Source: Mytilus edulis
Lineage: Eukaryota
Assembly (NCBI RefSeq): GCF_963676685.1
Contig: NC_092350.1
Location: 25,358,001 to 25,422,000, forward strand
Direction of reading: 5' to 3'
Length of the DNA: 64,000 nt
Each line of letters starts with the position of its first letter. Within the stretch, counting starts at the first letter, position 1. Shown in pieces: positions 15,570-51,359 of this stretch. The position numbers were made by a program, and so were the translations under genes. Below the pieces are notes generated by a model, which saw only the letters and a list, made by a program, of their open reading frames with translations, was not told the DNA's origin and searched no databases.

Positions 15570-18500
15570 CAATTATATGCTAAATAATATCTGCAAATAA
15601 AAGAGACACCACCTCAGATTGAGTTGAAACAATCTGCATGTCTTTGATTCAATGTCGTTATCTGTAACAGACACATGTGTGTATTACATGTAGCTGCAAA
15701 GGCGAATACGCTGTTATATAACAGCATCTTTTCGCCAACATTTGAAAGCTTTTTCCATGTTCGATTCATATTTCTACATATGCAGTTTTTATACACAGAA
15801 TACCGTTACATGTTAAAATTTAAACGCATGAACACTTTCAATGCGCGCAAGTGGTGCACACTCGACCAAATAGTTTTGAGCAGTCTATATACATACTGTA
15901 TCTTAATTTCATACATAGTAAGGAGCAATGTTTTTGGTAATTGTGGTCCTAATGTATTGGCTTAATGTGACAGAGAATAAATTAAGGAATTCAGCTCCCT
16001 AGAAGTCGGTCTGTGTTCTTGAATTAACTTATTTTTGACCCCAACAGTAACCAGTTAAACTTGCTTTTCATTCGGTTACTAAAAGTGGTTGTGACAAAAT
16101 AAGCGGGCTGACATTTTTTTAATGTTTCCAATCTTCTTTTTTTTTAGTGAAGACGTTTAAGTTTAAGGGTGATCTCTCAAACCAATTGTTAAGTAAATCG
16201 GAGTATAAATGAATAATGAGCCCTTAACTATTATACATACCTTTTGTTGGACGTAAATTTTGAAACTTAATCAGACGTGTATATCAAAATCTTAAAAATG
16301 CTCTTTTCATTTTACTTGACTTGACTTAGAATACGCATAATCAAAACTCGTGTATTTTATCCAGATGATTGTGATGTGTTTTAAACATTTTAATCATTAG
16401 TATTGGCAATTATACCTCATTTTTACAACTGTCAAACAACTAAGAGGTTTAGCTAGCCAGCTATAAAACCAGGTTTATATGCCTGGAATATGACAGTTGT
16501 TGTCTATTCGTTTGAAGAGTTTGAGCTTTTGATTTTGCCATTTGATTAGGATCTTTTCATTTTTAATTTTCCTCGGAGTTCAGTATTTTTGCGATTTTAC
16601 TCCATATATATTTTTATTCACTTACAACATATGTCATATACAAGAAACAAAAAGATAATAATTTTTTTTTTATTTTTGGCTCAACAGTATAAATAAAACA
16701 GTGGTACAGATTACAACCATTTTACATTTACAATTCAATACATTGTTGGAACAAATCTGGTCATGACTTCTACACTAATGTATGATCATACTAAAGATAT
16801 TATGCCATACTAATGAGTATAGTTTACATTACAAATGCATATACTTTCATAGCTTGTGTAAACTGAAGGCTTGTTATAATATCTTGAAACTTGTTTCAGG
16901 GGTCTTGACAATATGTTTTTTTTTTTTCAAAACTTTTTAGGTGATTCTATGGCAATTTAAGAAAGAACATTCATACTCATTATAAAGTCATACAACTAAT
17001 TCATTTTATTGCACTTTAGATTTTTCTATCCTATTTATCTATAGTTGCCATTGTGGATATAAATCAATATATTCCATACTACACTACATTACATCTAGAT
17101 CTGTCAGGTGCTAATAACTACATACTTTGACAATTCTACATGATTTTTATATAAATAATTATTTTAACAAAATGAGTTACTTCCCTTAATAGAGAAATAG
17201 TTCTCTGTTTATCAAAGAGATTACGATACTGAACGAATTTAGCATATCATTTCCTCAGTAAAGTTGGGGAAAAAATGTAAAGAGAACTGTATGTTAAATA
17301 GATTGCAATGTATTTTCTTGATAGTTCCCTGGTCTTAATGTTAAACAAGAGTGCACACGCTGAAATGTCTCGCCTTCTATACTAATCATTGATATTATGT
17401 TGATAGTCCTAAGTATAAAGCTAAGCTTTATTACAACTATCACATAAACTTAACATTAACCAAGATAACTAAACAAAGACCAATGAACCTTCATTATCAA
17501 GGTCATTTGTTTAGGGGTTCACAACAAGGAACCAAGGATTTCGAAATTACGATGTGAACTTTTTACTTCGCGATTTTAATTTGTTTATCCAAGTTAAAAC
17601 GTAAGTTCAATCCGAGATATATATTCGGTGTGTCTTTTCGTTTAATTGACACGTTTATAATGTTTTAATAAATAATGCAGCTCACTACTGTACGATTGTA
17701 GGTTCACAGTTTGACACCTGACTAATTGATTATCACGAAAAGTTATATTGTATCAACAAATATGTTTTGATTGCATATCGATCATTGAAATTAATTAGAC
17801 AAACCGGTTTTGACAGGTAATAATTAATGTAATTAAGAGTATTGGGACTTCATAATAAGACCGGAATTCGGAATACACAGGGTCCGGTTTACAAAGGGTA
17901 TTTTAACAAAGACTTTGAATGGAAAAATATGGGACTTTCATTTTCGGCCGGAATGGACAGGAAACCGATTTATTCAGGGTCCGGTTTAATCAGGTTTGAC
18001 TGTATAATGCTAATGATCACAAAACACAGATCAAGTTTAAATTTTGGTGGCGTCACTTCAACCGTTCTACAGTAATGTCCCTTTACAAATGGAAAAAAAT
18101 GCTGACTTTTTCGTTTCCATTCTCTAAAAAAGTAAAATCACAAAAATACTGAACTCCGAAAAAAATTCAAAACGAATTTTTCTTATCAAATGGAAAAATC
18201 AAAAGCTCTAATTCATCAAACGAATGGATAACAACTGTCATATTCCTGACTTGGTACATCCATTTTCTAATGTGTGGGAAATGGTAGAATGAACCTGATT
18301 TTATAGCTAGCTAAATATCTCACTTGTATGACAATCGTATCAAATTCTATTAAATATTGACAAAGATGCGTGAACAAAACAAAAAGACAAAATAGGGGAA
18401 CAGCAGTCAACATGGTCAACATTGTGTTATTATAATCTTGTTATTACATTGGTTGCAATGATTTACGTTGATTTCCCCAAATAAAAACCGATAATTTCAC

Positions 18501-18591: not shown

Positions 18592-21500
18592 TTTTTATAC
18601 GACCGCAAAGAATGAAAATTTTTTGGTCGTATATTGGTATCACGTTGGCGTCGTCGTCGTCGTCGTCCGAATACTTTTAGTTTTCGCACTCTAACTTTAG
18701 AAAAGGTGAATAGAAATCTATGAAATTTTAACACAAGGTTTATGACCACAAAAGGAAGGTTGGGATTGATTTTGGGAGTTGTGGTCCCAACATTTTAGGA
18801 ATTAGTGGCCAAAAAAGGCCCAAATAAGCATATTCTTGGTTTTCGCACTATAACTTTAGTTTAAGTAAATAGAAATCTATGAAATTTTGACACAAGGTTT
18901 ATTATGACCACAAAAGGAAGGTTGGGATTGATTTTGGGATTTTTAGTTCAAACAGTTTAGGAATTAGGGGCCAAAAAAGGGCCCAAATAAGCATTATTCT
19001 TGGTTTTCGCACAATAACTTTAGTATAAGTGAATAGAAATCAATGAAATTTAAACACAAGGTTTATGACCACAAAGGGAAGGTTGGGATTGATTTTGGGA
19101 GTTAAGGTCTGAACAGTTTAGGAATCAGGGCCCAAAAAGGGCCCCAAGTAAGCATTATTCTTGGTTTTCGCACCATAACTTTAGTATAAGTAAATAGAAA
19201 TCTATGAAATTTAAACACAAGGTTTATGACCACTAAAGGAAGGTGGGGTTTGATTTTGGGAGTTTTGGTCCTAACAGTTTAGGAATAAGGGGCCCAAAGG
19301 GTCCAAAATTGAACTTTGTTTGATTTCATCAAAAATTGAATAATTGGGTTTTTTTGATATGCCGAATCTAACTGTGTATGTAGATTCTTAATTTTTGGTC
19401 CCGTTTTCAAATTGGTCTACATTAAGGTCCAAAGGGTCCAAAATTAAACTTAGTTTGATTTTAACAAAAATTGAATCCTTGGGGTTCTTTGATATGCTGA
19501 ATCTAAAAATGTACTTAGATTTTGGATTATTGGCTCAGTTTTCAAGTTGGTCCAAATCGGGGTCCAAAATTAAACTTTGTTTGATTTCATCAAAAATTGA
19601 ATAATTGGGGTTCAAAGAAGCCAGATTATTTAATTTCACTTTCAGATATATTGATGATGTTCTTTCCATAAACAATCCGAACTTTTCTGATTGGGTTCCA
19701 TTAATATATCCCCCAGAACTAGAGATTAAAGAATCAACAGACACGGCTTCCTCCGCCTCATTTTTAGACTTATATCTCGAATTTGACTTACACAGTCATC
19801 TCAGTACCAGAATCTATGACAAACGAGACGATTTTAATTTTGAAATCATAAATTTCCCCCACCTTAGTAGCAATATACCAACTTCACCTGCATATGGAAT
19901 ATATATTTCCCAACTTATTCGATATTCAAGAGCTTGCAGCTCCTACTCAGACTTTGTAATACGTCATCAGTGTCTGAGTAGAAAGTTGATGAAACAGGGG
20001 TATGTCAAAGAACGTCTCGTTCTTTTTCTAAAAAAAGTTCATCGGAAGGTACCAAGACCTTGTTGATAAATATTCCGTATCAACTTCCTAAATAATACAC
20101 GATGGTCTTGATGTATAGATTCTTCGTACTGATGTTGTTTATCATCTTAACAACGTGTTTTATAGTTCTTTCATTTGTCTTTGTTCTATTATTAATATTA
20201 CTTTTACTGTTGAATGGTTTCATGTGATATCCGTTTCACGTGGCTCGGTACTTATACATCTCGTCAATGTGTTTGTATTGGCTTTCATTTTTTTTTTGTG
20301 GTTTGTTTTGTATTTGCGACTTTTTGTATTTCTTTTGTTCTTATAACGTGACTCTGTACTTTAAAAGATCCCGTCAGTATGATATTGTTCTATTATATGT
20401 CATTATGATATATTTCTATTATGAATTACAATATACGTTGAACCACAAACGTCAAAATCATTCAATCGCGTAGTGGTATTAACTATTTTTTGATTCTTAT
20501 AAATTCTATATATAACTTTTGGACTAGTTTAAATCTCGGTCTATTTCTTAAATTTATTCTTACATACTTTTGATTTTTTAACCCTGTATGCTAACATTCC
20601 CATGACAATTTTAAAATTGTTTGTACGCACATTGAACGACAAATTTATGTGACGTATAAAATTATCTGACGTCAGACACTCAATAAATGTGTTCGTAGAT
20701 AGTAGATGTTTTTGTGTTCTGTTAAATTGTTCCTTTTAAAATTGTTAAACGATGATGACTGATGTACTCATATTTTGACTATTATATTTATTGTGTCTGT
20801 TTATTTAACGCATCAATGTAAAAATATCGGAAATTGATGAGACTGTCATTAAAGTGAGAGGGTTAGCGCTATAGAACCAGGTTTAATCCACCATTTTCTA
20901 CATTTGAAAATGCCTGTACCAAGTCAGGAATATGACAGTTTTTGTCCATTCGTTTTTGATGCGTTTTGTTTTTTGATTTTGCCATGTGATTATGGACTTT
21001 ACCAATTGATCTTCCTCTAAGTTCAGTATTTTTGTGATTTTACTTTTTGATATGCCAAATCTAACTGTATGTAGATTCTTAATTTTTAGTCCCGTTTTCA
21101 AATTGGTCTACATTAAAGTCCATAGGGTCCAAAATTAAACTGAGTTTGATTTTAACAAACATTGAATTCTTGGGCTTTTTTGATATGCTGAATCTAAACA
21201 TGTACTTAGATTTTTGTCCAGAATAGTAGTTGAATCAACTTAAATCATTTTTTTTACAATATACAATGTATATTCACTTTTACTACCAACTGATAAATTA
21301 AAACAATCTTTACCATTCAGTGATAACAAGCACCTTTTGTTACATTTTAAAATTTTATGATGTCTTTAAATGAGTAGTTATTGTGTTGCAAACTCCATTA
21401 GAAATTTTAATTGAGATCAGTTTTGGAAAAAGGGAAAGGGGGATGTGAAAAAAATGGGGGGGGGGGTCAAATTTTTCTCATTTCAGATTTCATAAATATA

Positions 21501-26132: not shown

Positions 26133-28213
26133 TTTTTATAAAACCGCAAAAATTGAAAAATTTTTGGTCGTATATTGGTATCACGTTGGCGTCGTCGTCT
26201 GCGTCGTCGTCGTCGTCGTCGTCTGCGTCGTCGTCGTCGTCGTCGTCCGAATACTTTTAGTTTTCGCACTCTAACTTTAGTAAAAGTGAATAGAAATCTA
26301 TGAAATTTTAACACAAGGTTTATGACCATAAAAGGAAGGTTGGGATTGACTTTGGGAGTTTTGGTCCCAATGTTTTAGGAATTAGGGGCCAAAAAGGGCC
26401 CAAATAAGCATTTTCTTGGGTTTCGCACTATAACTTTAGTTTAAGTAAATAAAAACCTATGAAATTTTGACACAAGTTTATGACCACAAAAGGAAGGTTA
26501 GGATTGATTTTAGGAGTTTTAGTTCAAACAGTTTAGAAAGTAGGGTCCAAAAAAGGGCCCAAATAAGCATTATTCTTGGTTTTCGCACAATAACTTTAGT
26601 ATAAGTTAATAGAAATCAATGAAATTTTGACACAAGGTGTATGACCACAAAAGGAAGGTTGGGATTGATTTTGAGAGGTGAGGTCTGAACAGTTTAGGAA
26701 TAAGGGGCCAAAAAGGGGCACAAGTAAGCATTATTCTTGGTTTTCGCACCATAACTTTAGTATAAGTAAATAGAAATCTATAAAATTTAAACACAAGGTT
26801 CATGACCACAAAAGGAAGGTTGGTTGTGATTTTGGGAGTTTTGGTCCTAACAGTTTAGGAATAAGGGGCCCAAAGAGTCCAAAATTAAACTTTGTTTGAT
26901 TTCATCAAAAATTGAATAATTGGGGTTCTTTGATATGCCGAATCTAACTGTGTTCTTAATTTTTGGTCTCGTTTTCAAATTGGTCTACATTAAGGTCCAA
27001 AAGGTCCAAAATTAAACTTAGTTTGATTTTAACAAAAATTAAATCCTTGGGGTTCTTTGATATGCTAAATCTGAAAATGTATTTAGATTTTTGATTATTG
27101 GCCCAGTTTTCAAGTTGGTCCAAATCGGGGTCAAAAATTAAACTTTGTTTGATTTCATCAAAAATTGAATAATTGGGGTTCTTTGATATGCCAAATCTAA
27201 CTGTATGTAGATTCTTAATTTTTAGTCCCGTTTTCAAATAGGTCTACATTAAAGTCCAAAGGGTCCAAAATTAAACTAAGTTTGATTTTAACAAAAATTG
27301 AAATCTTGGGCTTTTTTGATATGCTGAATCTAAACATGTACTTAGATTTTTGATTATGGGCCCAGTTTTCAAGTTGGTTCAAATCAGGATCCAGAATTAT
27401 TATATTAAGTATTGTGCAATAGCAAGAAATTTTCAATTGCACAGTATTCAGCAATAGCAAGAAATCTTCAATTGAACAGTATTGTGCAATAGCAAGAAAT
27501 TTTCAATTGCTCAGTATTGCGCAATAGCAAGAAATCTTCAATTGCACAGTATTGTGCAATAGCAAATATTTTCAATTGCACAGTATTGCGCAATAGCAAG
27601 AAATATCTAATTGCACAATATTGTGCAATTGCAAGAAATTTTCAATTGATTGGAGTTATCTTTCTTTGTCCAGAATAGTAGTTGAATCAACTTAAATCAT
27701 TTTTTTTTTACAATATACAATGTATATTCACTTTTACTACCAACTGATAAATTAAAACAATCTTTACGATTCAGTGATAACAAGCACCTTTTGTTACATT
27801 TTAAAATTTTATGATGTCTTTAAATGAGTAGTTATTGTGTTGCAAACTCCATTAGAAATTTGAATTGAGATCAGTTTTGGAAAAAGGGAAAGGGGGATGT
27901 GAAAAAAAATGGGGGGGGGGGGGTTAAATTTTTCTTATTTCAGATTTCATAAATAAAAAGAAAATTTCTTCAAACATCTTTTTGGGAGGATTAATATTCA
28001 ACAGCATAGTGAATTGCTCAAAGGCAAAACAAATATTTTAAGTTCATTAGACCACATTCATTCTGTGTCCGAAACCTATGCTGTGTCAACTATTTAATCA
28101 CAATCCAAATTTAGAGCTGAATCCAGCTTGAATGTTGTGTCCATACTTGCCCCAACCGTTCAGGGTTCAACCTCTGCGGTCGTATAAAGCTGCGCCCTGC
28201 GGATCATCTGGTT
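26133..28213 (+). mobile_element. Non-autonomous Helentron-type (HINE-like) element, copy 2
   Basis: Same termini, (GTC)n tract and internal tandem units as copy 1; also has about 7 copies of a 35-bp unit at 27408-27650. Confidence 0.85.
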
Positions 28214-29149: not shown

Positions 29150-29400
29150 TTTTCAAAGTCTACATTGTTAAAGTATGAAATATTCGACAAACGAAGGATG
29201 TTCTTATCCCAGACATAGCTTAATATGCTTACCTTAGCTGTATTTGGCACAACATTTTGGAATTTTGGGTCCTCAATAAAGTTTGTACTTGTTTGGCTTT
29301 CTAAGTATTTTGATCTGTGCGTCACTGATGAGTCTTATGCAGACGAAAACGTGCATCTGGCGTATCAAATTATAAGCCTGGTACCTTTGATAACTATTAA
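29150..29400 (+). mobile_element. Single partial retrozyme-like repeat unit
   Basis: Homologous (opposite strand) to the 33523-34492 array: ttaccttagctgtatttggc...gtcctcaat...gcgtcactgatgag...cctggta. Confidence 0.75.
29319..29363 (+). ncRNA. Minimal type-I hammerhead ribozyme motif
   Basis: GCGTCA-CTGATGA-GTCT tatgc AGAC-GAAA-acgtgca-TC-TGGCGT: intact core boxes, stems I and II paired, degenerate stem III. Confidence 0.75.
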
Positions 29401-30980: not shown

Positions 30981-31041
30981 GATTTTATCTATGTAATGAT
31001 CTGTCTTATGACAAACTAAACCTTGGAATTAGTTATTTCGG

Positions 31042-32601
31042 GAAACAAAAACTGGTCGGGTTTGCCTGGATGGTATGCTATTAGATGAAGACAGTTGCTC
31101 AGATTTGTTAAAGTTTATTTATACAGGTGAACCTAAGGTGGTTAAAATGGGTAATGCTGACATCCTACTCCATTTAGCCCACATGATGCAAATAAAGTCT
31201 CTCCATACGATATGTAAGCAGTTTCTAAGTAAACATGCTGACAAGTCTAACTGTGTACATGTCTGGCAGGTTGCACAGAATCATGGCGAAACTGCAGATC
31301 TGGCCGAGATAGCACGATCGTTAATTCTTAAACATTTTGCCGAAATTGCTAACAGTGAAGCCAAACTTGATGAAATAGGTACAGTTGATACTCTTATATC
31401 TATTTTGGAATCTGATAATATCAATGTTGTTGATAGAAGTAGTTTATTTTGCCAAGTCTCATTTTCGTGGATAGTTGCGGATTTCGAAAATCGTATTCAA
31501 TTTTTCTCAGAACTATGCGAGGCTATGATGATAAACAGAGTGTCGGCGAAAGACATATACGAAGAGGCTGTCAAGATTGAAGAATTTTCGACCAATCATG
31601 ATATATTGCGAATGTTAGAAGACTTGAGATCGCGTTACAACTCTAATATGCAAGGTGATGGTGTTTTTGCTACTCCAGCAGACGAGGTATTGGTGGTTAT
31701 TGGAGGCAGTGATGGTGGAAACAACTGCAGTGTAATGGGGTTTAGTTTTCCTCAAAAGATTTGGTTTTCTTTAAAGCCATTGCCATTAGACCCTGGGTTA
31801 AAATTTGCCATGTGTTCAAAAGGTCTAGACATTTATGTATCAGGTGGTTCCGGTCCAGCCCCGAATATGGGAACTGGCGGGAAAACTGTATTTTTTAAAT
31901 TTGACGGCCAGCAGAATGAATGGATTCATCTTCGACATTTACAAATGGAAAGACAGAATCATGTGATGTACGCCTTCAAAGATGTCTACGTATTTGGTGG
32001 GAAGGAGGGACAGGGATGCAGTAATAGTGTTTTGAGGTTCAATATTGCCACAAATACATGGGTAATCAGTAAAACTAGATTGTATGAACCTGTTAGATCA
32101 CCAGCTCACACTTGTGTAGGAAAGAAAGTATATTTATTTGGCGGAATTCTTTCCGAAGGCAATCCTTCCAATACAATTCAATGTTTTAACTGCGAATCAG
32201 AGTAAAGCTACAGAGTTTCGTATAAGTTACCAGATTTTGCACGACTTAATTCCAAAGCGGTCAACTACAAAGAACAGCTGATAGTTATTTGTAACGATGG
32301 AAGACATGGAACGGTATTAAAATGTTCCGAAAAAGACAGCACACGACCAGTATCTAAGATAACTAATTTTGGTAGGAAAGGATTTGGAGCGTGCTGTTTT
32401 GAGGACAAGATCTTGATTTGCGGCGGGGAGGTGTCGTTCATTGCACGAAAGGATATGATGCTGTATGATTTAAAATCTGAAATTGTTATACCAATGCAGG
32501 AAACACTACCAATATCATTATTCCAATTTCGTTACACCAAGACTGTTGTGTTGCGAGATTTTCTAACCACTGAATGTGGAACGAGTTTGGCTACTATTTA
32601 G
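31042..32601 (+). pseudogene. Duplicated BACK-Kelch exon (paralog of 14019-15569), probably pseudogenised
   Basis: Colinear with copy 1; acceptor cag->cgg; CAA->TAA at 32203-32205; frame continues intact to TAG at 32601 with a 9-nt in-frame insertion; no copy of exon 1 seen upstream. Confidence 0.8.
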
Positions 32602-33753
32602 TGAATATACTGGCTGAATTTTAACTGTAACTATAATAATGAAAAACAATTTAGTGCACAAATTGAATTATCAACAAACTGCTGCTTTCTGATATCGAAC
32701 TTTTTATGTATTATCATACACGCTAGATTATCAGTATGCCAAAACAAAAACGCCGTCTTAATATACCACCCAGTTGACAGAACAATGTTAATATGAGTAG
32801 TATATATTTTATTTCATCAATCACACAACAGCACTTGACACTCAATCTCAAATGAATCTTTTATTTCATTATACGTATTAGATGATGTTCTGTTTCAACA
32901 ATGAATTCGATATAACTGTAGAGATTTTAGTGAAGAAAAGTATTAACATGATTGATAGGAAAAACTATACTTGAAAATAAACCAAATATGTATGATGAAA
33001 ATGGTAAAGTGTTACTTTATAAAAACTTAAAACTAAGCCTGGATAGATAGTTTATTTGGCTTATCATGACTGCATAAGAAAATGCTTTACTTATCTGAGA
33101 ATTAGTGATCAATATCTAAAAATTAGAGAAGGATCACTATTAAATAACACATAGAAAGGATAGACATTGCACTTGCTGTGGGATAGAAAACACTTCCTCC
33201 GGGAAATTGTATGTGAAATCAACGAAATTCTTAGTAAAAATCTATTGAAGAATTTAGCCTTTCGATATTAAATATCCATTTATGATATAGCTTTCACTAA
33301 AACAATTATATGTTAGTGCTGATACTTAGTGTGAAAATGTTTGTCTATGACAATAAACTTTTTGAAAGGTTCTGAGACAATCCCTGTTTCCAGAAAACCT
33401 TATCGTCATAGCTTCAACACAATGCTTATACGTATATTTTTTTTGTTACTAATTTCAGTTATTTTAAAATGCACAACACCACTACTACTTAAGCTTGATA
33501 CACAGTCAGAAGATTTCAATATAATTCCTAAAGGTTTTGTCAAATACAGCTAAGGTAATCTATTCCTAAGTATTTCAAAAATGCAAAGTTTTGTAAACAG
33601 TTTATTTATTAATTTGATAATTGATGTCAACACAGAAGTGCTGACTTCTGGGCTGGCGAAACCTTCGGGGAATAAAAACTCCACCAGCAGTAGCATCGAC
33701 CTAGTGGTTGTAAATAAACTCATCATACTTACCAGGATTGAAATTTTGTATTT

Positions 33754-33797
33754 GCGCCAGATGCGCGTTTCGTCTACAAAAGATTCATCAGTGACGC
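33754..33797 (-). ncRNA. Minimal type-I hammerhead ribozyme motif
   Basis: GCGTCA-CTGATGA-aTCT tttgt AGAc-GAAA-cgcgca-TC-TGGCGC; 6-bp stem I, intact core, one mismatch each in stem II and in the near-palindromic stem III. Confidence 0.75.
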
Positions 33798-34119
33798 TCG
33801 AATAAAAATAAGTTAAAAAGGACAAATAAGGTACGAAGTTAAAGCGCATTGAGGACCAAACATTTGTAAAATATTTGCCAAATATAGCTACGGTAATCTA
33901 TTCCTGAGGTAGAAAAGCCTAAGAATTTTAAAAATTCAAAGTTTTGTAAACGGTTAATTTTATAATTATGACAGTATCAATAATAATTCATGTCAACACA
34001 AAAGTGCTGACGACTGGGATGGTGATTCCCTCGGGGAATAAAAACTCCACCAGCAGTAGAATCGACCCAGTTGTTGTAAATAAACTCATCATAAATACCA
34101 GGATTGAAATTTTGTATAT

Positions 34120-34163
34120 GCGCCATACGCGGATTTTGTCTACAAAAGACTCACCAGTGACGC
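34120..34163 (-). ncRNA. Degenerate hammerhead motif (core mutated)
   Basis: GCGTCA-CTGGTGA-GTCT tttgt AGAC-AAAA-tccgcg-TA-TGGCGC. Confidence 0.55.
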
Positions 34164-35077
34164 TCGAATAAAAAAGTAAATAGGCCAAATAAAATACAAA
34201 GTTGAAGAGCATTGAGGACCAAAAATTCTTAAATGTTTGCCAAATACAGCTAAGGTAATCTATTCCTGAGGTAGAAACGACTTAGTTTTTAAACAATTCC
34301 GAGTTTTGCAAACGGTTGATTTATAATTATGACAATATCAATGAGAATAAATGTCAACACAGAAGTGCTGACTACTGGGCTGGTGACTTCTCGGGGAATA
34401 AAAACTCCACCAGCAGTTGTATCGACCCAGTGGTTTTAAATAAACTCATCATAGATACCAGGATCGAAATTTTGTATTTGCGCCAGGCGCGTTGCAATCA
34501 GCAAGAATTGGAATAACTCGATATCAGTTGTATCACAGTGGGTTTGTTTTGACACTTAATATCCACTACATGCAGTGTCATTTCTATAACAGCTCAATAT
34601 ATTGAATTTGATGTTAAGTTCATTGATAGTCACAATTGTCTGTACTAGTTGCTATATATAATCTGACTCCGATATTAAAATTGCAAAACAGTTGCTATTT
34701 CCAATAAGTTGATAGTTATCATAAGTCACAAACTAGAAATCATCTCGTGCTATCATCCCTTACATAATGTGTCTGATAAAAGGACTTAATCGTAACATTG
34801 GGACATGTAACGGATGTGACATCCGAAGAAGGGTATGCATATATCGTTGTGCTGGGAACCTTCTGCCATTCCGACTTTTGACGATTGTATGTTTTTCAAA
34901 AATCCTAAATCAATAACAACTATACAAGAAAGACAGCTAGGAAACACAAAGAGGGCATTCAAAAGTTATTAGTCCAATAAACATGACCTAAACGTCTGAC
35001 GACAAAAAAGACAAACAACAGTCTGACATCAAAGTGTTTCACCTATAATATATGCCTTTTCTGGTTGATCTGATGTA

Positions 35078-35223: not shown

Positions 35224-36662
35224 ATGTATACAGATGTGCAGCTCTTCTTCGTGTTCTTATTTCAATTGATATTCGGCAATACATAAAATTTAGCTTACTT
35301 GAAAACGAAACTGAAACTAGAAAACTGCATTCTCTTTACTGACATATATCTCGGCTTGTATGGGGTATTACCCACTTCTTTCCTGAAAATTAAGTTACAG
35401 CAGAGATATGCAACTGTAAAATGTATTATTATTATATAGATTTTATTATTTTTATCATTATTTTATTACCACCATCAAGTTTCAAGTTTATTGAAGATTA
35501 TGCCTTATATCTAACGTGGATAAATTGTAATCGGTTAAATACTTTTTGTAATCTAAATATAGAACAACGTATATCAATATGCACAACGGAAATCACCTAA
35601 ATTATCCCATGTGGCATGTGTTGGAATGAATGACATTTAAAAGCATACAAAAAAGGTAAATGCCTATTGATTCCTTATTTCATTATCAGTGTCTTCTTAC
35701 TTGTCATATCTTGTAGATCTATTGCATGACACTCATTATGACTACTGTCAAACTTAAAACAATCTGTCAGGTTATTTACTGATTACTAATGTAAAGTATA
35801 CGGTACAATGCGTACATTCGAGAGACAGAAAATTCTCCATGCATCTTGCACGTACCCCACCCCCGGAAAAAGGCACATAGTTATGTTTGTTTCAATAAAT
35901 ATTATGATGATACCTCGGACTCCAAGACATAGAAATATTTCTAAACTTCGGAGATTGGAAGTAACTCAAGTGTATTATTTTCAATGGCGCCCTTCATCCT
36001 TTTCCTTCTCACCCGTTTTCCCACTGGTCAAACTATCCGACGAATGAATTGATCGATATTGACAGTGGCGGATCCAGAACTTATCATAAAGAGGGGGCGC
36101 TGGCTGACCTAAAAGGGGGTTCCTGCCTCCAGTCATACTTCACTGAGTGATTCCCTATATATAAAATAAACCAAAATTTTCAAACGAAAGGAGGGACCGT
36201 GCCCCCAGCCCCCCCCCCCCCTTGATCCGCCTATGCCGAGAAAAGAAAGGCAAGGCAAGGACTTGTTGTTTTGGGAGATTTATAAACTTAAATAAAGATA
36301 TAATTTCAATGTTATTATTTTGTTATAATTTTAGCTCAGCCTGCTCGAAAGAAGAGTAATAACATGAACGGTACATATCTAACTGCATATATATTTAGAC
36401 GAATTATATATACAGAATGTGTATCAACACCACTGTCTCATCTGTCATAGAGTTGTCTTTGGTTCAGACGTGCTTATGATATAATTATTTCTGTGACTGG
36501 ATCCTACATTAAGTTGTAAGATACTCTACGATAGTTAATTGAGCTGATCTGTAAAAATTCCATCTTGAATTTCATGCCTTATATATCATGTACTGTGTTA
36601 CGACGCTAGATAAAAACTGACGAGGAAAGGTAACACCCGGCTACCGAAAGCTTTATAATTGT

Positions 36663-36797
36663 AGAGCATAGGTGGTTGAGTGGTCTAGCGCGTCGGGCAC
36701 AGTGGTGCCATGATATCTCAGTATCATGAGTTCGAATCTCGCCAGGGAAGAACAAAAAATTTGAGTTCTTCCCTTGTTGAGATTCGAACTCATGATA
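36663..36797 (+). mobile_element. tRNA-derived SINE head with an inverted duplication of the B-box region
   Basis: A-box-like tggttgagtgg and B-box-like gagttcgaatc; tatcatgagttcgaatctc..agggaagaac is mirrored by gttcttccct..gagattcgaactcatgata. Confidence 0.55.
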
Positions 36798-39700
36798 TAT
36801 ATGTAGGACTCTAAGGTGCGATGGTCACGCTAAAGTGCGATGGACTACGCTAAAGTACGATGGTATACCACGCTAAAGTGCGATGGATCAAAAGAGTAAG
36901 ATTCGAGGAATTTAAACATCGACTTTAAAAAATAGTCTTTTTCCAATTGCTAGTATGCTAAGGTATAACATATGTGATAGGCTTTAGAATTTACCGGTAG
37001 GCTTAAGTGATTGTTTCTAAAAAAATTTCGGAGCATATTGAATATTTGGATAATTGGTGTAATTTGTATAAGCTTTAATTTAGGAAAGACAGTTCGCCAA
37101 GCTTTCTCCCTTTTCGTAGCGAGTACAATACATGTTTTATTTTCCAACAATGTACAGAACAAACTAATGTTTAAACAATTTATAATTTACGCACGAAAAC
37201 ATGTATCTCTGATTTTACCGACGTTACTTTCATTAAAATCGACAGCATTTCAACGGGGATCGCAAAGTAAACTGCCACATAAACAATAATTCAAGTTTCA
37301 ATTTATCCTTTGGCTTCAAATATAAGCAGGGTATGTATGCGTATACTATTTTGTATTAATATCGTAAAATGGTTGACGGTAAGATACAAGTCCTTCTTCT
37401 AGCACTCGAAAAAAAATAAACATTGTGACTCAGTCGACAAAAAACGGTTAAGTTAAAATCAATGACTAGTAACATGAGTAAGTCATGTACATTGGTGTTA
37501 AAGTTGTTTATCAAATATTCCTAATCTATCTTCCGGCAAGATCATTTTCGTTTAACATGTTTATTTTTTAATCATGTAATTTAGAGAAACAGATTCTTAC
37601 AAAGTTACTCGTAGGTTATCGGATTTATCCAATCTCGATAATTAAATCATAAATTTTAAAGTCCTAGCTCGCCGTGTGTGTGTTTTTGTTATGATAAATG
37701 AAAAAAATCTCTTAGGAGTAGATGTTTAAATCCCAATTTGATGGAAGAAAAACAATAATTCAAATTTGAATACTGAATTATAAATAACTATAACAACATC
37801 TGAATTATTAAATTTCGAGTTATCTTTCTTATTCCCTAAAACTATACAACTTTTATGTTGAACATAACCAGAATGAGCGGAGTGAAAAATAGTTGTATGG
37901 TATGCAAGTGTGATTGAACGTGTAATGCCCGAAGAGCTTTATGATTGGGAAGACAATTACAATGAATTTGAATTCTTTTAGTCATTAATTTGTGCCTGGA
38001 ATTCTAGAGATGGATAAATAGTATAGAACACACAGAGAACCGAAACTAAAGCGCAAAATAACGGTACGCAATTCTCCAAAGACTTCATTAAAGGGCACAT
38101 TTCACATATATTGTTGTTGATATAACCGGGCATTATCTAGATAAAAGATGATTACAAATAAATACAAAGCATTCATTACGGGAAACAAAATACACAACGG
38201 AAAAAAACAGCTAATGCGAGAACCATTTGATCCTTAATCTTACAATATCGGACATACTTAATATTGTTCCTCGAAGAAGTTGGTTTCTCATTTGTTCCTC
38301 CAGAAATCTTATAATTTCTTGTATAAAAACTGACCAAATACATTTTTGTTACCATCTAAACATTTAAAATCGTTGCGTCCTTACTTTTTTATACTTACAT
38401 TGAACATGTTCATTAATATGATTGACAACCTTGAGTTTCGCAGTAATGTGTTTCACTCGTCTTAGTTCATATAATAAAAAAGGCCAAACATTTAAAGCAT
38501 GTGCAGAAAATAAAGAGTTTCTTTGGTTATGTCATACCACATTTCAAGGTTATTTCAAAACGGAAAGTTCTTTATCAAATGGTAAAATCAAAAGCTGAAT
38601 TACACCAAACGAAGAGAAAACAACTGTCATATATTCCTGTCTTGGTACAGGCATTTTCGTATGTAGAAAATGGGGATCATACCTGGTTTTATAGCTAGCT
38701 AAACCACTCACTTGCATGGCAGTTGCAATATATTGAAAATATTGTGTGATTAAAAAACCGGACATAATATATAAACATGTCAAAAGTAGGGATACATCGG
38801 TCATCAATGTGTTATAATCTTAACAACTATAACAACGAATAACTATTTCAACAATGAATAATGTACAATCCTTTATACTTCACTTTACATATTGTCATTT
38901 TACAGCTCTTCAACTGTTTTAGTTCCTATACATCCTTGGTTTTCAAACATTCGATTTTGTAACGTGTTTTTTTATAGTTATGATCTCAATGACATAATGA
39001 CAAAGCATATCTGTGTGTGTTACATTTTAATGTTGTGTCGTCATTCTCCTCTTATATTTAATGCGTTTCCCTCGGTTTTGGTTTGTAATCCGGATTTTTT
39101 TTTCTATCGATTTATGACTTTTGAACATCGGGATATTACTGTTGCCTTTATTTATATAGGGATTTTCAGATAGATTATATCAAAATATATAATTCTTCTT
39201 TTTTTTCATTTTTTTTTTTTAGAAAAGTAGAAGTAATTGGATTAAAGCTGCGATTAGGCAAAACACACATAGTCTTGATCAAACGGTTAATGTAAGTAGA
39301 CGATGGGATATTCAACAAATATAGAATAAACATGAATACAAGTAGACCCAGCGAAACAACTACGCGACGACATATTTACCGAAACATGGTAAAAAACAGT
39401 TTTCAACAATAGATAGTTGTCTAAACAATACGTCAAGAAAAAAGCAGTCCCGAGTCTCAAAACGTTGTGAAAAATTAACATTGCAAACTCTCTGATCGGT
39501 AAATATATACAAATAACAATGAACATATAATTTATGATGATATATGACACTAGACAAACACTGAGCTATCTGCTATGTTTTACCTCTACTTTTGATTAAG
39601 ATGAATAACTGACAAAAAGATCCTGAAGTATAAAAAAAATAGTGCATTCAAATCATAAGTAGTGTTTCTGAAATTAATTTCAGAGACATTCAGATACACT

Positions 39701-43317: not shown

Positions 43318-44984
43318 TACCAAGCATGCTCTTGATTGACGAAAAAGATGTATCCACTTATAACATTAAGTAAATGGTATATTGATATGAATGTGAATAT
43401 CATTACAAATATGATAACTCAAGACTTGGTTGTTGTGGTGTATATTTTTCTTTATGTTATTGTTTAATTTCCAATCAATATGTGATACAATAGGAAACTT
43501 GAGTTCATTGTTATTATCATTATTACTTCTTAAAGAATTGTCTTCAAAATGAAAACTCAAAATTGTTTGCATTCTAGTTTTGTGTGATGTACATTTAATT
43601 TCAACCAATTGACTTTTATTATTTAAATGAGCGGGCATTACTGTAGTATTTTATAAAGTTATTCATTATATTTTTTAATTACATTTTGTTTTGTAAATGA
43701 TGAAACTTTTCTTTTGCTCATACATGACTTTATATTGTTATTTTTATATTTCAATGTGCTGTAGTGTTTTGTAGTGTTATGGTACCAATTAAGATGTATC
43801 ATCGGGATTTTCTGTCATATATATGATTCACAAGCTAGGTGCTATTAATTATATCCAATGTATTTCTGATCGTGAAATTTATTTGTAGAGGTTTTACAAC
43901 TATTTTTTTTTCTTTCTCATACCTCTTTAGTAAATATGTACTTCAAAAAGCAACTTATACAGTATGAGGTAGAGTTTATGATCTGAACAGCCAGTTAACT
44001 GTCATGAGCATTACCATTTAATCCGATACAAACGAAAAACTCTTGTCCAAAATAAAGGCAACAGTAGTAAACCGACGTTCAAAACTCATAAATCTATGGA
44101 CAAAAAACAAAATCGGGGTAACAAACTAAAACTGAGGGAAACGCATTAAATATAAGAGGAGAACAACGACACAACATTGAAATGTAACACACACAGAAAC
44201 GGACTAAGCATTAGACAAAATCCTATGAGAATAACAAATATGTTCTCCATTTTTATTCAAATTATGTTGTAGGGAATAATGAATACATTGTTATAAATTT
44301 TCAAACATAAATAATCAATAACAAATTGTTCATTGCGTCCTATGTTGATTAACCCAATAAGGGGTAATGAGTGAATGAATTGATCTTGGCAGCAATTAAT
44401 CATTAGTTATATTTATCTTAATTTAATGTATACTTTACTAAGTTGTATTTATTTTTCATAAATGTGTATAGATGTTGTCTACACAAATTTCCCACTTTAT
44501 AAAGTTACAAGTTAAAATGGCTATAGAATTACGTAGGACAATCGTGAAGTTGTTTGTTGGGCAATTAAGAAGTTTTGAATGTTATACAATTTGACATTGT
44601 TATGAAAGTTTTTATTTGTCTGTATGATTGCGTAGTAGATAATTACAGGCAATTAATAAAAGAAACGTACCACATTTGTTTGAAATAAACATTGAAAATT
44701 GATATTTACATATTTGTTTTTTATTTCACATATATTTTTAAAATACAATTCACATCCAATATAATATTGACATGCCATAACATATAAACAGACCGCTTCT
44801 CAATTCTCCATAGGAAACATATGTTAGTAAATAACATACAAGGTACACTTGTTACACATTCCATAGCAACAAAACACAACTCATTATTTAGTTGCTACAA
44901 TTCCAACTATGAAGCAATGTTATCATACTGTATCACACCGACTTTCTCATTCTTCAGAGGTTGCTTGGGATTCTCCATTCATTC

Positions 44985-45150
44985 GATGCCACTGCTGGTG
45001 GAATTTTAATTCCCTGAGGGTATCAACGGCCCAGTAGTCAGCACTTCTGTGTTGACGAGTTATCATTGATATGTTCATAATTATAAATTAACTGTAACAA
45101 AATTGGAATTTTTAGATACTAAGGCTTTTATTCCTCGGGAATAGATTACA
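44985..45150 (+). mobile_element. Retrozyme-like repeat fragment lacking the hammerhead
   Basis: tcgatgccactgctggtgga...cccagtagtcagcacttctgtgttgac...gaatagattac matches the array unit. Confidence 0.7.
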
Positions 45151-45519
45151 TTATGCAGAACTATAACATGTAAAAAAAGAGGGAAATTGGGACTTAAACT
45201 TGAAAAACATTGAAATTAATGATGTGTTTTTAAATTTAATACAAAATGAAAGCCAGTTTCAAAATGAAATGTTTCTTGCCTTTATTTTGCATACATTTTC
45301 TAACACCAGCATTCAATGCTACAATAAAATGAAACATTCATCCATAGGCACGCACGTGCTTATGACAACAATGTAAAGACCAAACAAAACCCGAAATGCT
45401 TCATTTAATTATTTGTTTTAGAGTGATATCAGAAAATGTAATTGTAAGTAATGAAGCGTCTTGGGCTGTAAAAGCGTTGATCGTACGCGAGTATACAGAT
45501 GCAGCTAAGTAATATCTAA

Positions 45520-46152
45520 TATCTTGACTTACATATAGAAATTGACAATTACGGTCGGTTGAAAACAAAGTTTTGCAACAAAAGAGATGATTTCAGCTTC
45601 CCAATTGTGCACCTTCTATTTCTATATAACAAAGTTCGAGCAGCGCCTTCAAACGGAGTATATATCTCCCAATTGATACGATATTCCCGGGCTTGTCTTT
45701 CCTATCATGATTTCCTTGATAGAGGTTTGCTGCTCACAAGAAAGCTATTAAACCAAGAGTTCCAAATTATTAAGTTCAAATCTTCCCTTCGTAAATTTTA
45801 CGGACGCCATCACGAGTTGATTGACCGTTATGGAATAACGTTTCGCAGATGATATCGGATATGTTCCTTATGCCGTAATTACTATCCCCTACCCTTTTCA
45901 CGAATGTGACCTACCGAATCAGACTGTACCAATTTCATGAGCAACACTACGGATGCTACATGTGGAGCAGGATCTGCTTAACCTTCCGGAGCACACCCTT
46001 GTTTTATGGTGTTCGTGTTGCTTAGTCTATAGATTTCTATTGTGTGTCTTGTATACTATTATTTGTTTGGTTGTCTTTTTCTGTTTTAACCTTGGCGATG
46101 TCAGGTTTTTTTTATCTTTGAGTTTGACTGTCTGGTATCTTTCGTCCCTCTT
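45520..46152 (+). mobile_element. Second Penelope-like RT 3' fragment (degenerate)
   Basis: KRDDFSFPIV...GVYISQLIRYSRAC...LLTRKLLNQEF...RKFYGRHHELIDRY; same family type as 19614-20120. Confidence 0.8.
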
Positions 46153-47191
46153 TGGTATGCGGCTTTCTGCATGAAAAACATCTTTTGTTTGGAGTACATT
46201 TTCCTGTAATTATATATCAACTTGATGTTAGTCTATTTGAATATACTTCACCTCGACACAGTAGCCTTTCACTTTTTTTTTTTATTTGTGGTTGCCAACC
46301 TTAAACATAATTTAAACCAGAAAAGACCCAGCCAAAATAGTTGAAGATAATCTTTATGTTCAATACATAAACTGATTGTGTTTAATCTTGCAAGTAACGA
46401 CGCATTTTATGCTAAGGAAATTAAACAATCAATAATAACAGTACACCGGCTTAGACAACGACCAAGCGATATGATAGTTTCGCGCATGAAATAAATACCA
46501 TAAATACTCCTCTAATTCTTGAACAAAAATGCGTTAAGATTAAACGGTTTGGAATGCAATAAATTCGCTTTTTTATTTTTCTAAGGAAATTTCAGTTATC
46601 CGTGATTTAACATAACTTGACATATGTTTTGTTTCCATTATTCATTTTTATCAAAATGTCACAACATGTCACATGTGTCACAAATAAACAACTACGATTT
46701 AAATTAATAATCAATCACGATTTGACGTTCGGCGGACGTAAGATTTTTGATTGTCGCACGAACTTTTCAGCCTTGAATCTCCCAAACATCAATGATTTAA
46801 AAATTTCGAAAAAAAAGTCGTAATTTTCGCAAAACACATTTAAGAGGAACATTTTATTCCAAAAACTAGACATGTGTTTATACTATATATCTATCAAATC
46901 GCGCTGACTTTACAGATTTAACACTATTAAATAATCCTGGTACCTTTGATAATTTTTGGCTTATTTTGAGACGAAATATACATATTTAAGAATGTCTTAT
47001 GCATGAATAAATCATAGTAAAATGCACCAAAGCACTCCAAATTTCATAAGATTCAAGACGGACAAAAATACTAAAATATAAGTAAAAAACAACTTCTGAT
47101 AACTTGAAGGTTGTCCATGTTTGGCAATACTTTAGGTTTGCTTGTCAACATCTTTATCAGATTTGAAATTTTCGTGTATTTTGGCCTCGAA

Positions 47192-47233
47192 CATCACTGA
47201 AGAAACATTAATTGTCAAAATGCACGTCTGATG
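47192..47233 (+). ncRNA. Degenerate hammerhead motif of a second sequence family
   Basis: CATCA-CTGAAGA-aACA ttaat TGTc-aAAA-tgcacg-TC-TGATG; stem I differs in sequence but still pairs. Confidence 0.5.
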
Positions 47234-48393
47234 CATTACAGTTTGTACCGTGTATGTTATTCATGCATTAAAACATGTACCTAGTTTTAAACTGTAGTGA
47301 ACTATTCCAGAGTTGCTATCTAGGTAGGGTTAAAATGGGATATTTTATACAATTGTTCAATTGCTTACATCCGGCTTTTAGCAATATTTTAAAACTATAT
47401 GTTTTTTTTATAACAATAGGAATGTCCGTGTATGGTTCTAGGGGAAAGAGATTAAATTGAAAATGAAGGTCAGAATAAAATGAATTACAGTTTCCTGTTA
47501 GTTTTGAATTTTATCATATTTGCACTTTATTCTTGGAAAGAGGAAGTTAATATCATACCTGCGATATAGAGTAAGTGATAATGTATAATCATGTAAATTC
47601 CCCTAACTTTATAAGTTTTGACAATTTACTCTTAGTTACCCTTAAACTAGTTGCATGTGCATTAATTTACCCAGGTTGTACTTAAATAAAAAGAAATTAT
47701 TTGGTTTGTTGATGATTCTTTTTGCTTATTGAGCTCTATGAAAAGAAAAAGGTTCTGGTGTTTTGCTGATCTTTAAAGAAAATAGTTTCACAAGAATATC
47801 TATCTGATTAGTAAGAAATGTCTTTCAAACTGATGTTTTGTGTCAATTGATAAATGTCGATTTGTTATGATTTTCACGAATGAAGAATATGACAACAAAG
47901 AAAAACAAAATATGAAAACCTTAAAGAGAATTAGGTGTAAGATTTTTCGTAATTATATAAATGCATTTACTTTTTTTTTCGAATTTGAGTTGCCTCAGTC
48001 TGACACTTCTTCTACATTATCGAGGTCAGGTTTTATGTAAATAGAAAATCAAGTCAAGCAGTATGATTAACCATGCAGTCGGATGCCTTGATATGAGTTT
48101 TTCTAATTCGATTATCGGTAACCATGATTGACGACTAGTCTTTAATTCTTCAAAACCTCTAGAAATAGCAAATAGAAATTTAACATGAAGTGTTTAAAAA
48201 TCAAAAGATTGTCCCGCTGTATTGAAGACACTACATTTTATTTGTAATTTGAGAAAGAAAAAAAACGTACATGTACGTGTGGTGAGACTTTTTAAATTAT
48301 TTTCCAATTAAGCCTATAACTTTGTTCATTTGTATTCTTTAAAATGTGTTTATTGCTATTTTCTCATAGTTAAATGGATTTGTTATAATTGTC

Positions 48394-48457: not shown

Positions 48458-48661
48458 GTAAATTTAAAACCACGTTATTTTTACCTACTAACGGCTAATC
48501 TTCTAGAAAACTATTTAAAATAAGAAAACAATCATTTATATATTATATAGATGTTTTTATTTAAACGAGTTAGAGTTTGGCCTGGGTCGATGCTACTGAA
48601 AGTTGAGATCCCCCCCCCCCCCCCCCGAGGGTTTCACTAGCTTGGTGAGAGGTATTGACAA

Positions 48662-49643
48662 CCCTTATGAAATTTAAAATGTTGCTGCAGCATTGCCGCA
48701 GCGTTGCGGCTTTAAAGCTGCAACCTAATCAGGTTGCCAGAGGATTGTTGCCGGAGTAGTGCCGGATGATGCTGCTAGCGGCATTGTTCTGGCATCATTG
48801 CGACACTAATTCCTTTCAAAATTAATGAGCACCACAATATAGCCAGAAAATTTGATGATGTCATTTCCTGCGTTTTTAGCTATTCCCTGTACTAGTGTGT
48901 TAGAAATCCACCATGTTGCTTGTGATTATAATTGTATTGAAGAATTTGGTGTTCTAGCTGGGGTTTTTTTTGGAAGATTTGAAGACTTGTAAGTAAACTC
49001 ATATCAAGTAATTGCATGTATAGAAAAGATCAATCTTGGTGTATTTCAATAACATGGCCTCATCTGAGTTCACTGTACATGTATCGGTGAAGTTTGTGTT
49101 GGTTTTTTTTTTGCAGCAGTTTAATTGCATACTTGTAGTTTGGTAAATAACACAATATTATTTGCTAAACTTAGGGCACATTAAAAATTTTCATTATTTT
49201 TTATGCAGATACCGCTGACATTTATTTTATGTGCCTGTGCATACAAATTTATAATGCATGAATGCATGTCATATATATGCATTGACAACTTGTTTTTGCC
49301 GGCACAATACATTTTATACAAATCACGGCCTATTCGAATGTTTTGTCACTAAAATGATGTAATAATATAGCCGTATTAGCGCCGCAACAGCGCCACAATC
49401 ATAATGCCAGAAAACTAATTTGCATACGAAATACGCTATAGCCGCATCAGTGCCGCAACCTGATGCCAGAATATTGCCGCAACGGTGCCAGAATATAGCC
49501 GCAATTATGGTGCCAGAAAACTAATTTGCATACGAAATATGCTATCGCTGCATCGAAGCCGCAACAGTTTGCAGCAACAAAGACGCAGCATATCCATACT
49601 GCTGCCGCAACTATGTGCCAGAGGGCTTATATTTCCATAAGGG
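48662..49643. mobile_element. Non-autonomous DNA transposon with CCC termini and 2-bp TSD (CMC/EnSpm-like), inserted in a retrozyme-like repeat
   Basis: cccttatgaaatttaa ... ttatatttccataaggg flanked by aa/aa; GC-rich subterminal tgccgca/tgccag motifs; host repeat continues on both sides (48580-48661, 49644-49985). Confidence 0.7.
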
Positions 49644-51359
49644 AAATTATCATGACATGTTCAAATTAACGGTTTACAAAACGTAACATTTTTCAAAATG
49701 CTAAAGAATTTCTACCATAGGGATAGATTATCTTAGCTGTTGAAATTGCTTCTCTATGCTCTTCCTCTTTGTATTTTTTTTTATTCCAACGACAATGATG
49801 AGTGTTTTGTAGACATACACGTTCTACGGCTGGTATCTATGATGAGTTTGTTAACAGCTACTGACTCGATGGTACTGCTGGTGGAGGTGTATCCCGATGG
49901 TATGACGAGCACAGTAGTCATTTCTGTGTTTTTTTTTAAATACTACGGATTTTTTACATCAGGAATAGATTAACTTAGCTGTGTTGTTTTGTGTGCTGTC
50001 CTATGTTGTTTTACGGGTTAATTTGTATTCTGTTTTAAGCTTGTCGAAATATACTATTGTTTTGTTTGTTTATTTGTGACTTCCTCTGTTTTGAATGTTC
50101 TTGCGTTTATTTTTACTGTATTCCTGTCATGTAAGGGTGTAATCTTAGCCTTATAATCAAAATTGCCATAAAAGTGCGAGATTTAGCTAGCCCAAACAAC
50201 AGGTTCAACTCACCATGTTTTCTACAAATGTCCTGTACCAAGTCAGGAAAATGGCAGTTGTTATCTTATAGTTCGTTTCTGTGTATGTTGCATTGTCGTT
50301 TGGTTTTTTGTTCACTTCAGTGTTTCTGTTGTTATGTTGTTTTCCTCTTATATTTGATTTGTAGCCCTCGGTTTTAGTTTGAAAACCGGATTTTGTTTGT
50401 CTCAATCGATTTATGACTTTTGAACAGCAGTATACTACTGTAACCTTTATTTAGCTATATTTTGTAAAACCTTGCGTAATTTTTAGTCGCAATGCTCTTC
50501 ATCTTAGAACATTGTTTGCCTTTTAAATTTTGTGGTTTCGAGCATCACTGCTGAGCAATTTATAGCCGAATCTTGCGTCTACTGTACAAAAGATTTAGCC
50601 TGGTATATATGATTAGTTTATTTAGCATTCGTTAATCTAATCATATTCAATGAAAAATGTAAGTTAATTTAATTGAAGCAAATGTATGTGCAAACAATTT
50701 GCATTTTGACAAGAAAGAAGTTTTAATCATAGGAATCTACATGTGACACAACTAAGGCAGTATGAGAATACAATCAAAACAGATATTTTGATAAACTTTT
50801 ATCGTTGTTATTTTTTTAAGTGCATGTGTATATAACAAAATATAGGTAAACGTGATCGTTGTCAAGCTATGCTATAATCGAGCACAATTCTCATATTTTG
50901 TACGCAGTAAAACGTTCGTTATGTATAAAGAACGTAATTATTAGAGGCATGATAAGAACAATAAAATAATAGAGTGTGAGATGTTTTCCAAAAAATACAA
51001 GTTGAAATTAGAACATCGGTTTTTAATATATCTGATTTTTGAAAAATACTTTGTAGGAAGCTTAACACACCAACTGCTACTAACGTAAATTCTTTCATTG
51101 ATCTAGAGTATCTGAAATAAAGTGAGTTTTTTTTTTAATTTTAAATCATTCAATATATTTCAGTAGGTTTTGAAAAGGAATTGGAAAATAGGAAATTTCA
51201 ATTACGATAAAATATTTCACCACGAGAATTGCTAAATGATTATGGTTAATTGTTGTAAAAAATATTTCAAATAAACATGACAATTTGTAGGCTACATTTG
51301 ATTTTGTAAAATTTTAATAATAAATCACAGAAAAATAGTCTTTTTTAATTTACATTTAG

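Follow-up and report, generated by a model that had tools for sequence, protein, structure and literature searches.

Which reverse transcriptase (RT) serves as the helper of animal retrozymes, and why their RNAs are circles, are open questions in the available text of the literature cited here. Both bear on a tandem array at positions 33522-34493 (minus strand) of a 64,000-nucleotide stretch of the Mytilus edulis genome (contig NC_092350.1, forward-strand positions 25,358,001 to 25,422,000), hereafter the window. Judging from its sequence, the element is of a kind already known, and the new part would be its link to a hairpin of Naiads, a clade of Penelope-like elements (PLEs). We read the array as a mussel retrozyme of the non-LTR kind, now decayed. 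Its units join a canonical type I hammerhead to the Naiad 5′ hairpin, which likely recruits the Naiad RT and would set the point at which copying starts. No statement of such a hairpin, or of a retrozyme-Naiad pairing, was found in the accessible portions of the literature searched.

An old and damaged array of retrozyme units

The array consists of 2.7 head-to-tail units of 360, 366 and 238 nt, as placed by a profile built from whole monomers of the family at other loci (201-361 bits per unit, against at most 1.8 bits on the reversed window). TRF, run over the window, returned a period of 366 and 2.4 copies at 33624-34491; the head-to-tail units with periods of 366 and 360 nt that an earlier note on this DNA had described are borne out by both methods. 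The features of the array are as follows:

33522-34493, minus strand: whole array, retrozyme subfamily 1, decayed (TRF and monomer profile)
34126-34485, minus strand: unit 1, 360 nt, between successive cleavage sites (monomer profile)
33760-34125, minus strand: unit 2, 366 nt (monomer profile)
33522-33759, minus strand: unit 3, partial, 238 nt (monomer profile)
34480-34493, minus strand: 3′ remnant of a hammerhead at the 5′ edge of the array, with part of stem III, the cleavage site 34486/34485 and the 3′ strand of stem I (sequence)
34120-34163, minus strand: type I hammerhead, predicted inactive (core positions 6 and 12 changed, stem III altered, no Rfam match)
33754-33797, minus strand: type I hammerhead with intact core letters and broken pairs 10.1-11.1 and 15.2-16.2, predicted impaired (RF00163, 20.5 bits, E 0.052)
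34371-34440, minus strand: Naiad-type 5′ hairpin, copy 1, directly after a T-tract (model R1, 70 bits; outside the training set)
34010-34080, minus strand: Naiad-type 5′ hairpin, copy 2 (84.5 bits, in the training set; fold)
33644-33714, minus strand: Naiad-type 5′ hairpin, copy 3 (76.2 bits, in the training set)

Repeat size, GC content and hammerhead type support the suggestion of a non-LTR retrozyme like those known from mussels. Its whole units, like those of other arrays of the family (359-378 nt), fall within the 150-450 bp of retrozyme tandem repeats, and their GC content (0.36 and 0.34) lies under the retrozyme limit of 45-50%. Copies of the family are 5′-truncated tandem units without LTR pairs, and one stop-to-stop frame of 115 codons lies inside the array (33550-33897, minus strand).

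Units 1 and 2 are 85% alike and the best other copy reaches 88-89%, which suggests that the insertion is old. It is also atypical, since it ends at monomer position 265 instead of the family's usual ~47, and thus lacks the fixed 3′ end of the family, and since it starts near a cleavage site. The 5′ edge had been placed within about 10 nt of that site, and it lies 8 nt before it. An approach to the empty paralogous site through the Kelch gene duplication was dropped, the homology stopping at 32600. The window locus is an ordinary fossil copy.

Hammerhead ribozymes of the array and of the family

The units do not come with one intact hammerhead each: the array has only two whole hammerheads and a 3′ remnant, and both whole ones are damaged, in agreement with the inactivating changes that the earlier note had reported for local copies. 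Because these two flank unit 2, the locus probably cannot release a monomer any more. Over the whole window, an Rfam scan yielded no hammerhead and a strict descriptor none of the real ones, since the local copies are too damaged; scans of small regions found them. A search with hammerhead models had been proposed, and RF00163 matches both 33754-33797 and the intact family form (32.5 bits, E 2.8e-6, just below the gathering score of 34).

Across the family, the ribozyme has helices of 6, 4 and 2 bp and a palindromic tetraloop. Helix pairing reaches 94.8% over eight copies that represent three subfamilies, and four of the pairs have changed on both sides; 45 of 102 sampled copies are intact by our own criteria. 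The consensus stem III that had been deduced from the local copies, A-CGCGCG-U, is the family form, present in 67 of the 102. The folding energy of the whole hammerhead is not above that of shuffled sequences (z -0.7 to -1.0). Judged by its helices, the family hammerhead is of canonical type I and not "minimal", as the earlier note had it; the canonical metazoan form and the minimal PLE form are both defined in the available text of PMC4209133. Cleavage only as dimers is likewise unsupported, the published mussel ribozyme having shown cleavage from a cloned single repeat (PMC7229834, available text).

A fixed 3′ end in copies of the family

The 35-nt hammerhead core has 3,043 exact copies in the 1.37-Gb genome (control, 0), and the family is at least that large; the copy-number survey that had been called for thus returned thousands of copies. 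A 25-nt word from the 3′ end has 5,175 exact copies (control, 0), and element ends were analyzed at 97 of the first 100 listed sites of this word, all on one contig. Among 96 distinct occurrences, the element terminates within 12 nt in 68 and runs on into the hairpin in 28. Loci picked by their hammerhead give a similar picture, with 24 of 33 chained elements ending at monomer positions 40-59. Directly following the T-tract, 42 of the 68 terminal copies have A and 20 have G. Their 5′ ends, in contrast, are scattered: 58 cross the cleavage site upstream and 10 do not, the lengths being lower bounds because extension halts early at indels, and two pairs of rows looking like duplicated loci. Starts at most 5 nt after the cleavage site account for two of the 68, so that 5′ edges at this site, to which the earlier note had drawn attention, are not a mark of the family. 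What is fixed is the 3′ boundary, which falls at a T-tract immediately preceding the hairpin.

This end tracks the hairpin and not the hammerhead, since the distance from cleavage site to hairpin core is 69, 62 and 54 nt in subfamilies 1, 2 and 3, respectively, and each stops at the hairpin. In subfamily 2, 21 of 29 occurrences are terminal, with one reaching ~25 nt into the hairpin, and in subfamily 3 this holds for eight of 16 rows, two rows being one site. Loci L407, L408 and L148:5308-5597 probably represent a fourth hairpin-bearing subfamily with its own hammerhead variant.

The insertions have the anatomy of PLE insertions, namely 5′ truncation, partial tandems and an inverted 5′ copy; a script found two head-to-head inverted, 5′-truncated pairs among 139 chained elements (loci L023 and L228). 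No target-site duplications were apparent in 94 elements, in which the longest word shared by the flanks was 3-8 nt, as in 462 shuffled pairs, the 5′ edges being imprecise. Units are more alike inside arrays (0.92-1.0 at loci L015 and L017, 0.88-0.95 at L007) than between them (median 0.88), as expected from one template per array. At L017, units of 365 and 367 follow each other in turn, and so do sequence variants, a pattern that copying from a dimer, or duplication of a dimer, would give.

A hairpin shared with Naiad elements

Every full retrozyme unit carries a hairpin of ~70 nt, 47 nt after the hammerhead cleavage site. The first link to PLEs came when the monomer profile hit, at 17 bits, the start of an element that has a GIY-YIG domain at its N-terminus; local shuffles did not exceed 2.2 bits. 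PLEs were sampled as the best 150 GIY-YIG matches in the genome, and Naiad families A, B and C, which have the N-terminal GIY-YIG and the DKA motif, are 57-58% identical in their proteins; a search for more Naiad families gave these three and at most one other. Family A matches the published Naiad_Mgal/Mcor. In all three families the upstream pLTR is followed by a ~70-nt hairpin, which precedes the ATG; the segment matches monomer positions ~45-117 (45.6, 21-24 and 17 bits), and downstream copies end at the T-tract before the hairpin, as retrozyme copies do. The hairpin nearest to that of the retrozyme is the one of family C. Relative to the insertion end, the retrozyme carries the Naiad 5′ hairpin at an equal position, as would a non-autonomous partner. 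The ORF of an autonomous Naiad (N-terminal GIY-YIG, CxC, DKA and C-terminal RT) is absent from the array and is found elsewhere in the genome at L076/L153, L139 and L145.

Fold z-scores of the hairpin are -2.8 to -3.9 for the three Naiads and -1.3 to -1.9 for retrozyme copies, and the family A hairpin holds an additional self-contained stem. In an alignment of 12 sequences, 92.8% of cells are paired and nine of 21 pairs doubly changed, with 0-3 of 500 shuffles as high, although the structure was taken from folds of the same 12 sequences and related rows can beat shuffles without any structure. Where a pair has changed on one side, the outcome is often a G-U pair on the sense strand, as RNA pairing would lead one to expect.

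A covariance model built without family A recovers the family A hairpin at 28-31 bits, and on the loci of PLEs with a C-terminal endonuclease the hairpin model matched only inside inserted retrozymes (L080, L081). On 78 metagenome loci it gave 10 matches, six of them directly before Naiad ORF starts; three of the six are training sequences, and the Naiad ORFs outside training are those of L250, L251 and L282. In the surveyed part of the PMC8557442 supplement (15 of 22 and 15 of 18 word matches listed), the hairpin also opens the Naiad consensus sequences published for oysters, ark clam, mussels and hemichordates, and corals have a variant. The hairpin core occurs 9,858 times in the genome; in the first 30 occurrences listed, two belong to Naiad C and the rest resemble retrozyme subfamilies.

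Several further features were noted in the sampled PLEs. All sampled Naiad B copies (L137-L143, e.g. L139:4992-5198) hold a decayed retrozyme fragment (monomer ~154-361) in the 3′ UTR, which suggests that it travels with Naiad B. Naiad A has a weak twister-P1 match (L154:5895-5958; 19.8 bits, E 0.32, gathering score 67.2) at a distance of ~105-170 nt from the Naiad 3′ end, in the region that holds a hammerhead in other PLEs; the counterpart of this segment in the window lies at ~20880-20945. Canonical PLEs with intact ORFs (L069:4524-4548, L070, L071, L077, L080:3366-3393) have their own, different hammerhead-like motifs soon after the stop codon.

Other retrozyme and Naiad pieces in the window

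The dispersed pieces that the earlier note had placed at 29150-29400, 44985-45150, 48580-50620 and about 58900-59040 were recovered by the monomer profile, and a subfamily-3 hammerhead at 47191-47234 comes in addition to them. The fragment reported at 60790 stands in part: a two-part motif, picked after seeing the site, matches it and occurs in 0 of 100 shuffles, but its profile score is only 2 bits.

29165-29393, plus strand: 5′-truncated subfamily-2 copy with the typical fixed 3′ end; hammerhead at 29319-29363, core intact, stem III altered
44972-45153, plus strand: internal fragment with hairpin (43 bits), without hammerhead (44983-45153 by monomer profile)
47119-47234, plus strand: subfamily-3 fragment with the decayed hammerhead at 47191-47234
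48582-48642, plus strand: weak fragment of the hairpin region, 15 bits (monomer profile)
49648-50625, plus strand: old, decayed array into which the 3′ end of a Naiad B element (50106-50453) is inserted, with the typical fixed 3′ end at 50625; profile-placed pieces 49648-49983 and 50451-50625
58877-59036, minus strand: decayed fragment, 41 bits (monomer profile)
60791-60834, plus strand: very short 5′-truncated copy, from cleavage site to 3′ end (two-part motif)
19612-21046, plus strand: 3′ fragment of a Naiad A element (Naiad_Mgal/Mcor type) with the C-terminus of the RT and the 3′ UTR; identity to a full copy, 98%
45494-46159, plus strand: 3′ fragment of Naiad family C, 82.5% identity
44050-44241, minus strand: 3′ end of Naiad family B
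39010-39155, plus strand: further 3′ end of Naiad family B

Candidate Penelope-like drivers had also been seen here. PLEs are indeed likely drivers, but with the sampled PLEs as reference the 64-kb window holds no intact one, only 3′ fragments of three Naiad families. The long ORFs of the window, considered as drivers, were dropped, as they encode BTB-BACK-Kelch and Ig proteins. Junctions between Naiad 3′ ends and retrozymes (locus L224 and window position 50450) were rejected as template switches; the retrozyme sequence goes on upstream of the Naiad piece, so that these are nested insertions.

Elsewhere in the window, two paralogous BTB-BACK-Kelch genes (13977-15965 and 31033-32601) form a 2.3-kb duplication with 85.6% identity, each preceded by a 44-45-bp minisatellite, and a further BTB piece lies at 11382-11804. 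Exons of immunoglobulin-like domains are found at 57044-57547 and 59141-59569. Arrays of a 161-bp satellite, followed by 127-135-bp and 35-bp repeats, occur in equal order at 18680-19613 and 26260-27648, and we take these blocks to resemble a satellite-bearing mobile element. A 53-bp tandem array at 3941-5161 is very homogeneous (23 copies, 97% matches), and a ~330-bp repeat at 36439-36763 recurs, at times in tandem, in many sampled loci.

Transcription of the family

Raw reads of run X24 were sampled at ~6% (8.7 million records), with the usual stranded convention assumed. The subfamily-2 unit drew 6,265 reads, with depths of 786-2027 in the hammerhead sense against 102-942 in antisense, 509 head-to-tail joints against 57, and no pile-up of ends. 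For the subfamily-1 unit (4,671 reads), the bias is weaker with the same sign, and near parity in three bins. This shows that full units are transcribed in the sense direction, for the family and not for the window locus. Head-to-tail joints do not tell circles from multimers, because multimeric linear transcripts give them equally.

Proposed mechanism and alternatives

In the mechanism that we propose, tandem copies would be transcribed in the hammerhead sense, as seen for the family in the one RNA run, and the hammerheads would excise monomers of ~365 nt for a host ligase to circularize, as published for the M. galloprovincialis element. The Naiad RT/endonuclease would bind the hairpin, nick T-rich DNA and prime on the RNA just 5′ of the hairpin, a step suggested by the shared fixed end and by internal initiation in another Penelope-like RT. 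The RT may then run back over the resealed cleavage site and round the presumed circle until it falls off at random, which would leave a fixed 3′ end, scattered 5′ ends and occasional multimers. Since a cleaved linear monomer would give only 47 nt, and most copies are longer, the template was presumably uncut at that site, being either a ligated circle or a multimer that had not been cleaved. We infer a circle; circles are the dominant RNA form in the published mussel data (PMC7229834, available text). Because the hairpin lies behind the start point, the signal would be inherited only via a circle or a multimer, and the hammerhead and ligase step would serve the parasite as partial tandems serve Naiad. 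Two counterpoints come from the available text of PMC11167929, where the Poseidon RT worked in vitro mainly on uncleaved RNA, and where internal initiation was demonstrated for Poseidon, with a start inside the ORF, and not for Naiad.

Mussel retrozymes may, in a broader reading to which we give somewhat better than even chances, represent a minimal two-module parasite that combines the RT-loading hairpin of Naiads, found from corals to hemichordates, with the hammerhead that Naiads lack. Circularization would then be indispensable: with the RT starting ahead of its own signal, only a circle hands this signal on.

An unlikely alternative retains Naiad as the driver but has the hairpin act otherwise, as an RNA processing site that makes the 3′ end, an internal promoter or a DNA site for the endonuclease, with uncleaved linear multimers as templates and circles as a by-product. 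Such multimers also fit the fixed ends and the crossing of the cleavage site, and in the available text of PMC11167929 Poseidon insertion in vitro dispensed with hammerhead cleavage and the Penelope endonuclease recognized a DNA "tail". However, the G-U pairs produced by one-sided changes on the sense strand are those expected for RNA, no Rfam ribozyme matches the hairpin, and the cloned mussel repeat, assuming that it is of the same family, yielded monomers of full length as well as circles, which speaks against a second efficient cut at 47 nt (PMC7229834, available text). Still less probable is an origin of the family from a canonical Penelope/Neptune element with a hammerhead, which would also move it, as was proposed for the retrozymes of Xenopus; the Naiad hairpin would then be a captured passenger. 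As a counterpoint to the Naiad reading, this genome does contain canonical elements whose ORFs are intact and whose stop codon is followed, ~90 nt on, by a hammerhead-like motif, and the Xenopus retrozymes are homologous to pLTRs (10.64898/2026.07.22.740005, available text). Yet the monomer profile has no similarity to the sampled canonical elements outside inserted copies, and a passenger hairpin would neither retain its stems nor set the 3′ end of three subfamilies whose spacers differ. Spread as an ordinary satellite, by DNA-level duplication and unequal crossover, is hardly credible: although it would account for head-to-tail units and for higher-order patterns in some arrays (L017), it is already contradicted by the polar end pattern, in which thousands of dispersed copies, mostly shorter than one unit, have one end fixed and the other scattered, and the head-to-head inverted, 5′-truncated pairs (L023, L228) are as in PLEs.

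The broader reading, if true, would for the first time name a helper and a cis signal of an animal circular-RNA retroelement, and would provide a ~70-nt portable tag for Naiad-driven rolling-circle insertion. The link to Naiad lends itself to a direct in vitro test: the protein family is named and intact ORFs number in the dozens, the 70-nt RNA signal shows compensatory changes, and the start nucleotide is predicted. Across phyla, the 5′ boundary of Naiads is also marked by this hairpin, a point of relevance to pLTR formation in PLEs.

Comparison with known systems

In M. galloprovincialis, ~5,000 type I hammerheads lie in 350-390-bp repeats, and a cloned repeat cleaved at ~0.1 per minute, with abundant circles and ligation by RtcB (Cervera and de la Pena 2020, PMC7229834). 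The present family resembles that non-LTR retrozyme in its type I hammerhead, tandem repeat size, thousands of copies, related ribozyme families, low GC content and abundant RNA, and is likely identical with the published clones MN642551-MN642576, to which it was matched by size, copy number and ribozyme type. The available text of that report gives two ribozyme families, against at least three subfamilies in the M. edulis genome of the window, names PLEs as candidate helpers only, and describes neither a fixed 3′ end nor a Naiad hairpin.

With Naiad PLEs (Craig et al. 2021, PMC8557442) the retrozyme shares an equal 5′ hairpin, the T-tract end, 5′ truncation, and tandem and inverted insertions. 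Unlike them, it has no ORF and carries a canonical hammerhead, which Naiads lack. The accessible portions of that paper mention non-autonomous Chlamys, and describe neither the 5′ hairpin nor non-autonomous Naiad partners. The minimal PLE hammerheads (Cervera and de la Pena 2014, PMC4209133, available text) are similar in type I topology and in the palindromic 15.2-16.2 region, but have no helix III, a helix II of 7-8 bp and a helix I of 4-5 bp, whereas the family form has 6, 4 and 2 bp and a tetraloop.

The Poseidon RT (PAc of Anolis; Frangieh et al. 2024, PMC11167929, available text) starts internally at an AC-rich stem-loop, needs RNA 3′ of the start, nicks AT-rich DNA and does not need hammerhead cleavage. 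The retrozyme may be likened to it in its upstream hammerhead and in three features that on the retrozyme side are putative, an internal RT start near a stem-loop, a protein-binding region reaching 3′ of the start, and AT-rich targets. Poseidon PAc differs in being autonomous, in its C-terminal endonuclease, in the start inside the ORF and in having biochemical proof. The retrozymes of Xenopus, which were proposed to be non-autonomous PLE derivatives (Li, Clavereau, Pollet 2026, 10.64898/2026.07.22.740005), likewise have a terminal sequence in common with a PLE. In that case the homology is to the pLTRs of frog PLEs, and the available text covers no mollusc and Naiads only in coral, whereas in the mussel retrozyme the common piece is the 5′ start of a hammerhead-free clade, where it marks the insertion end.
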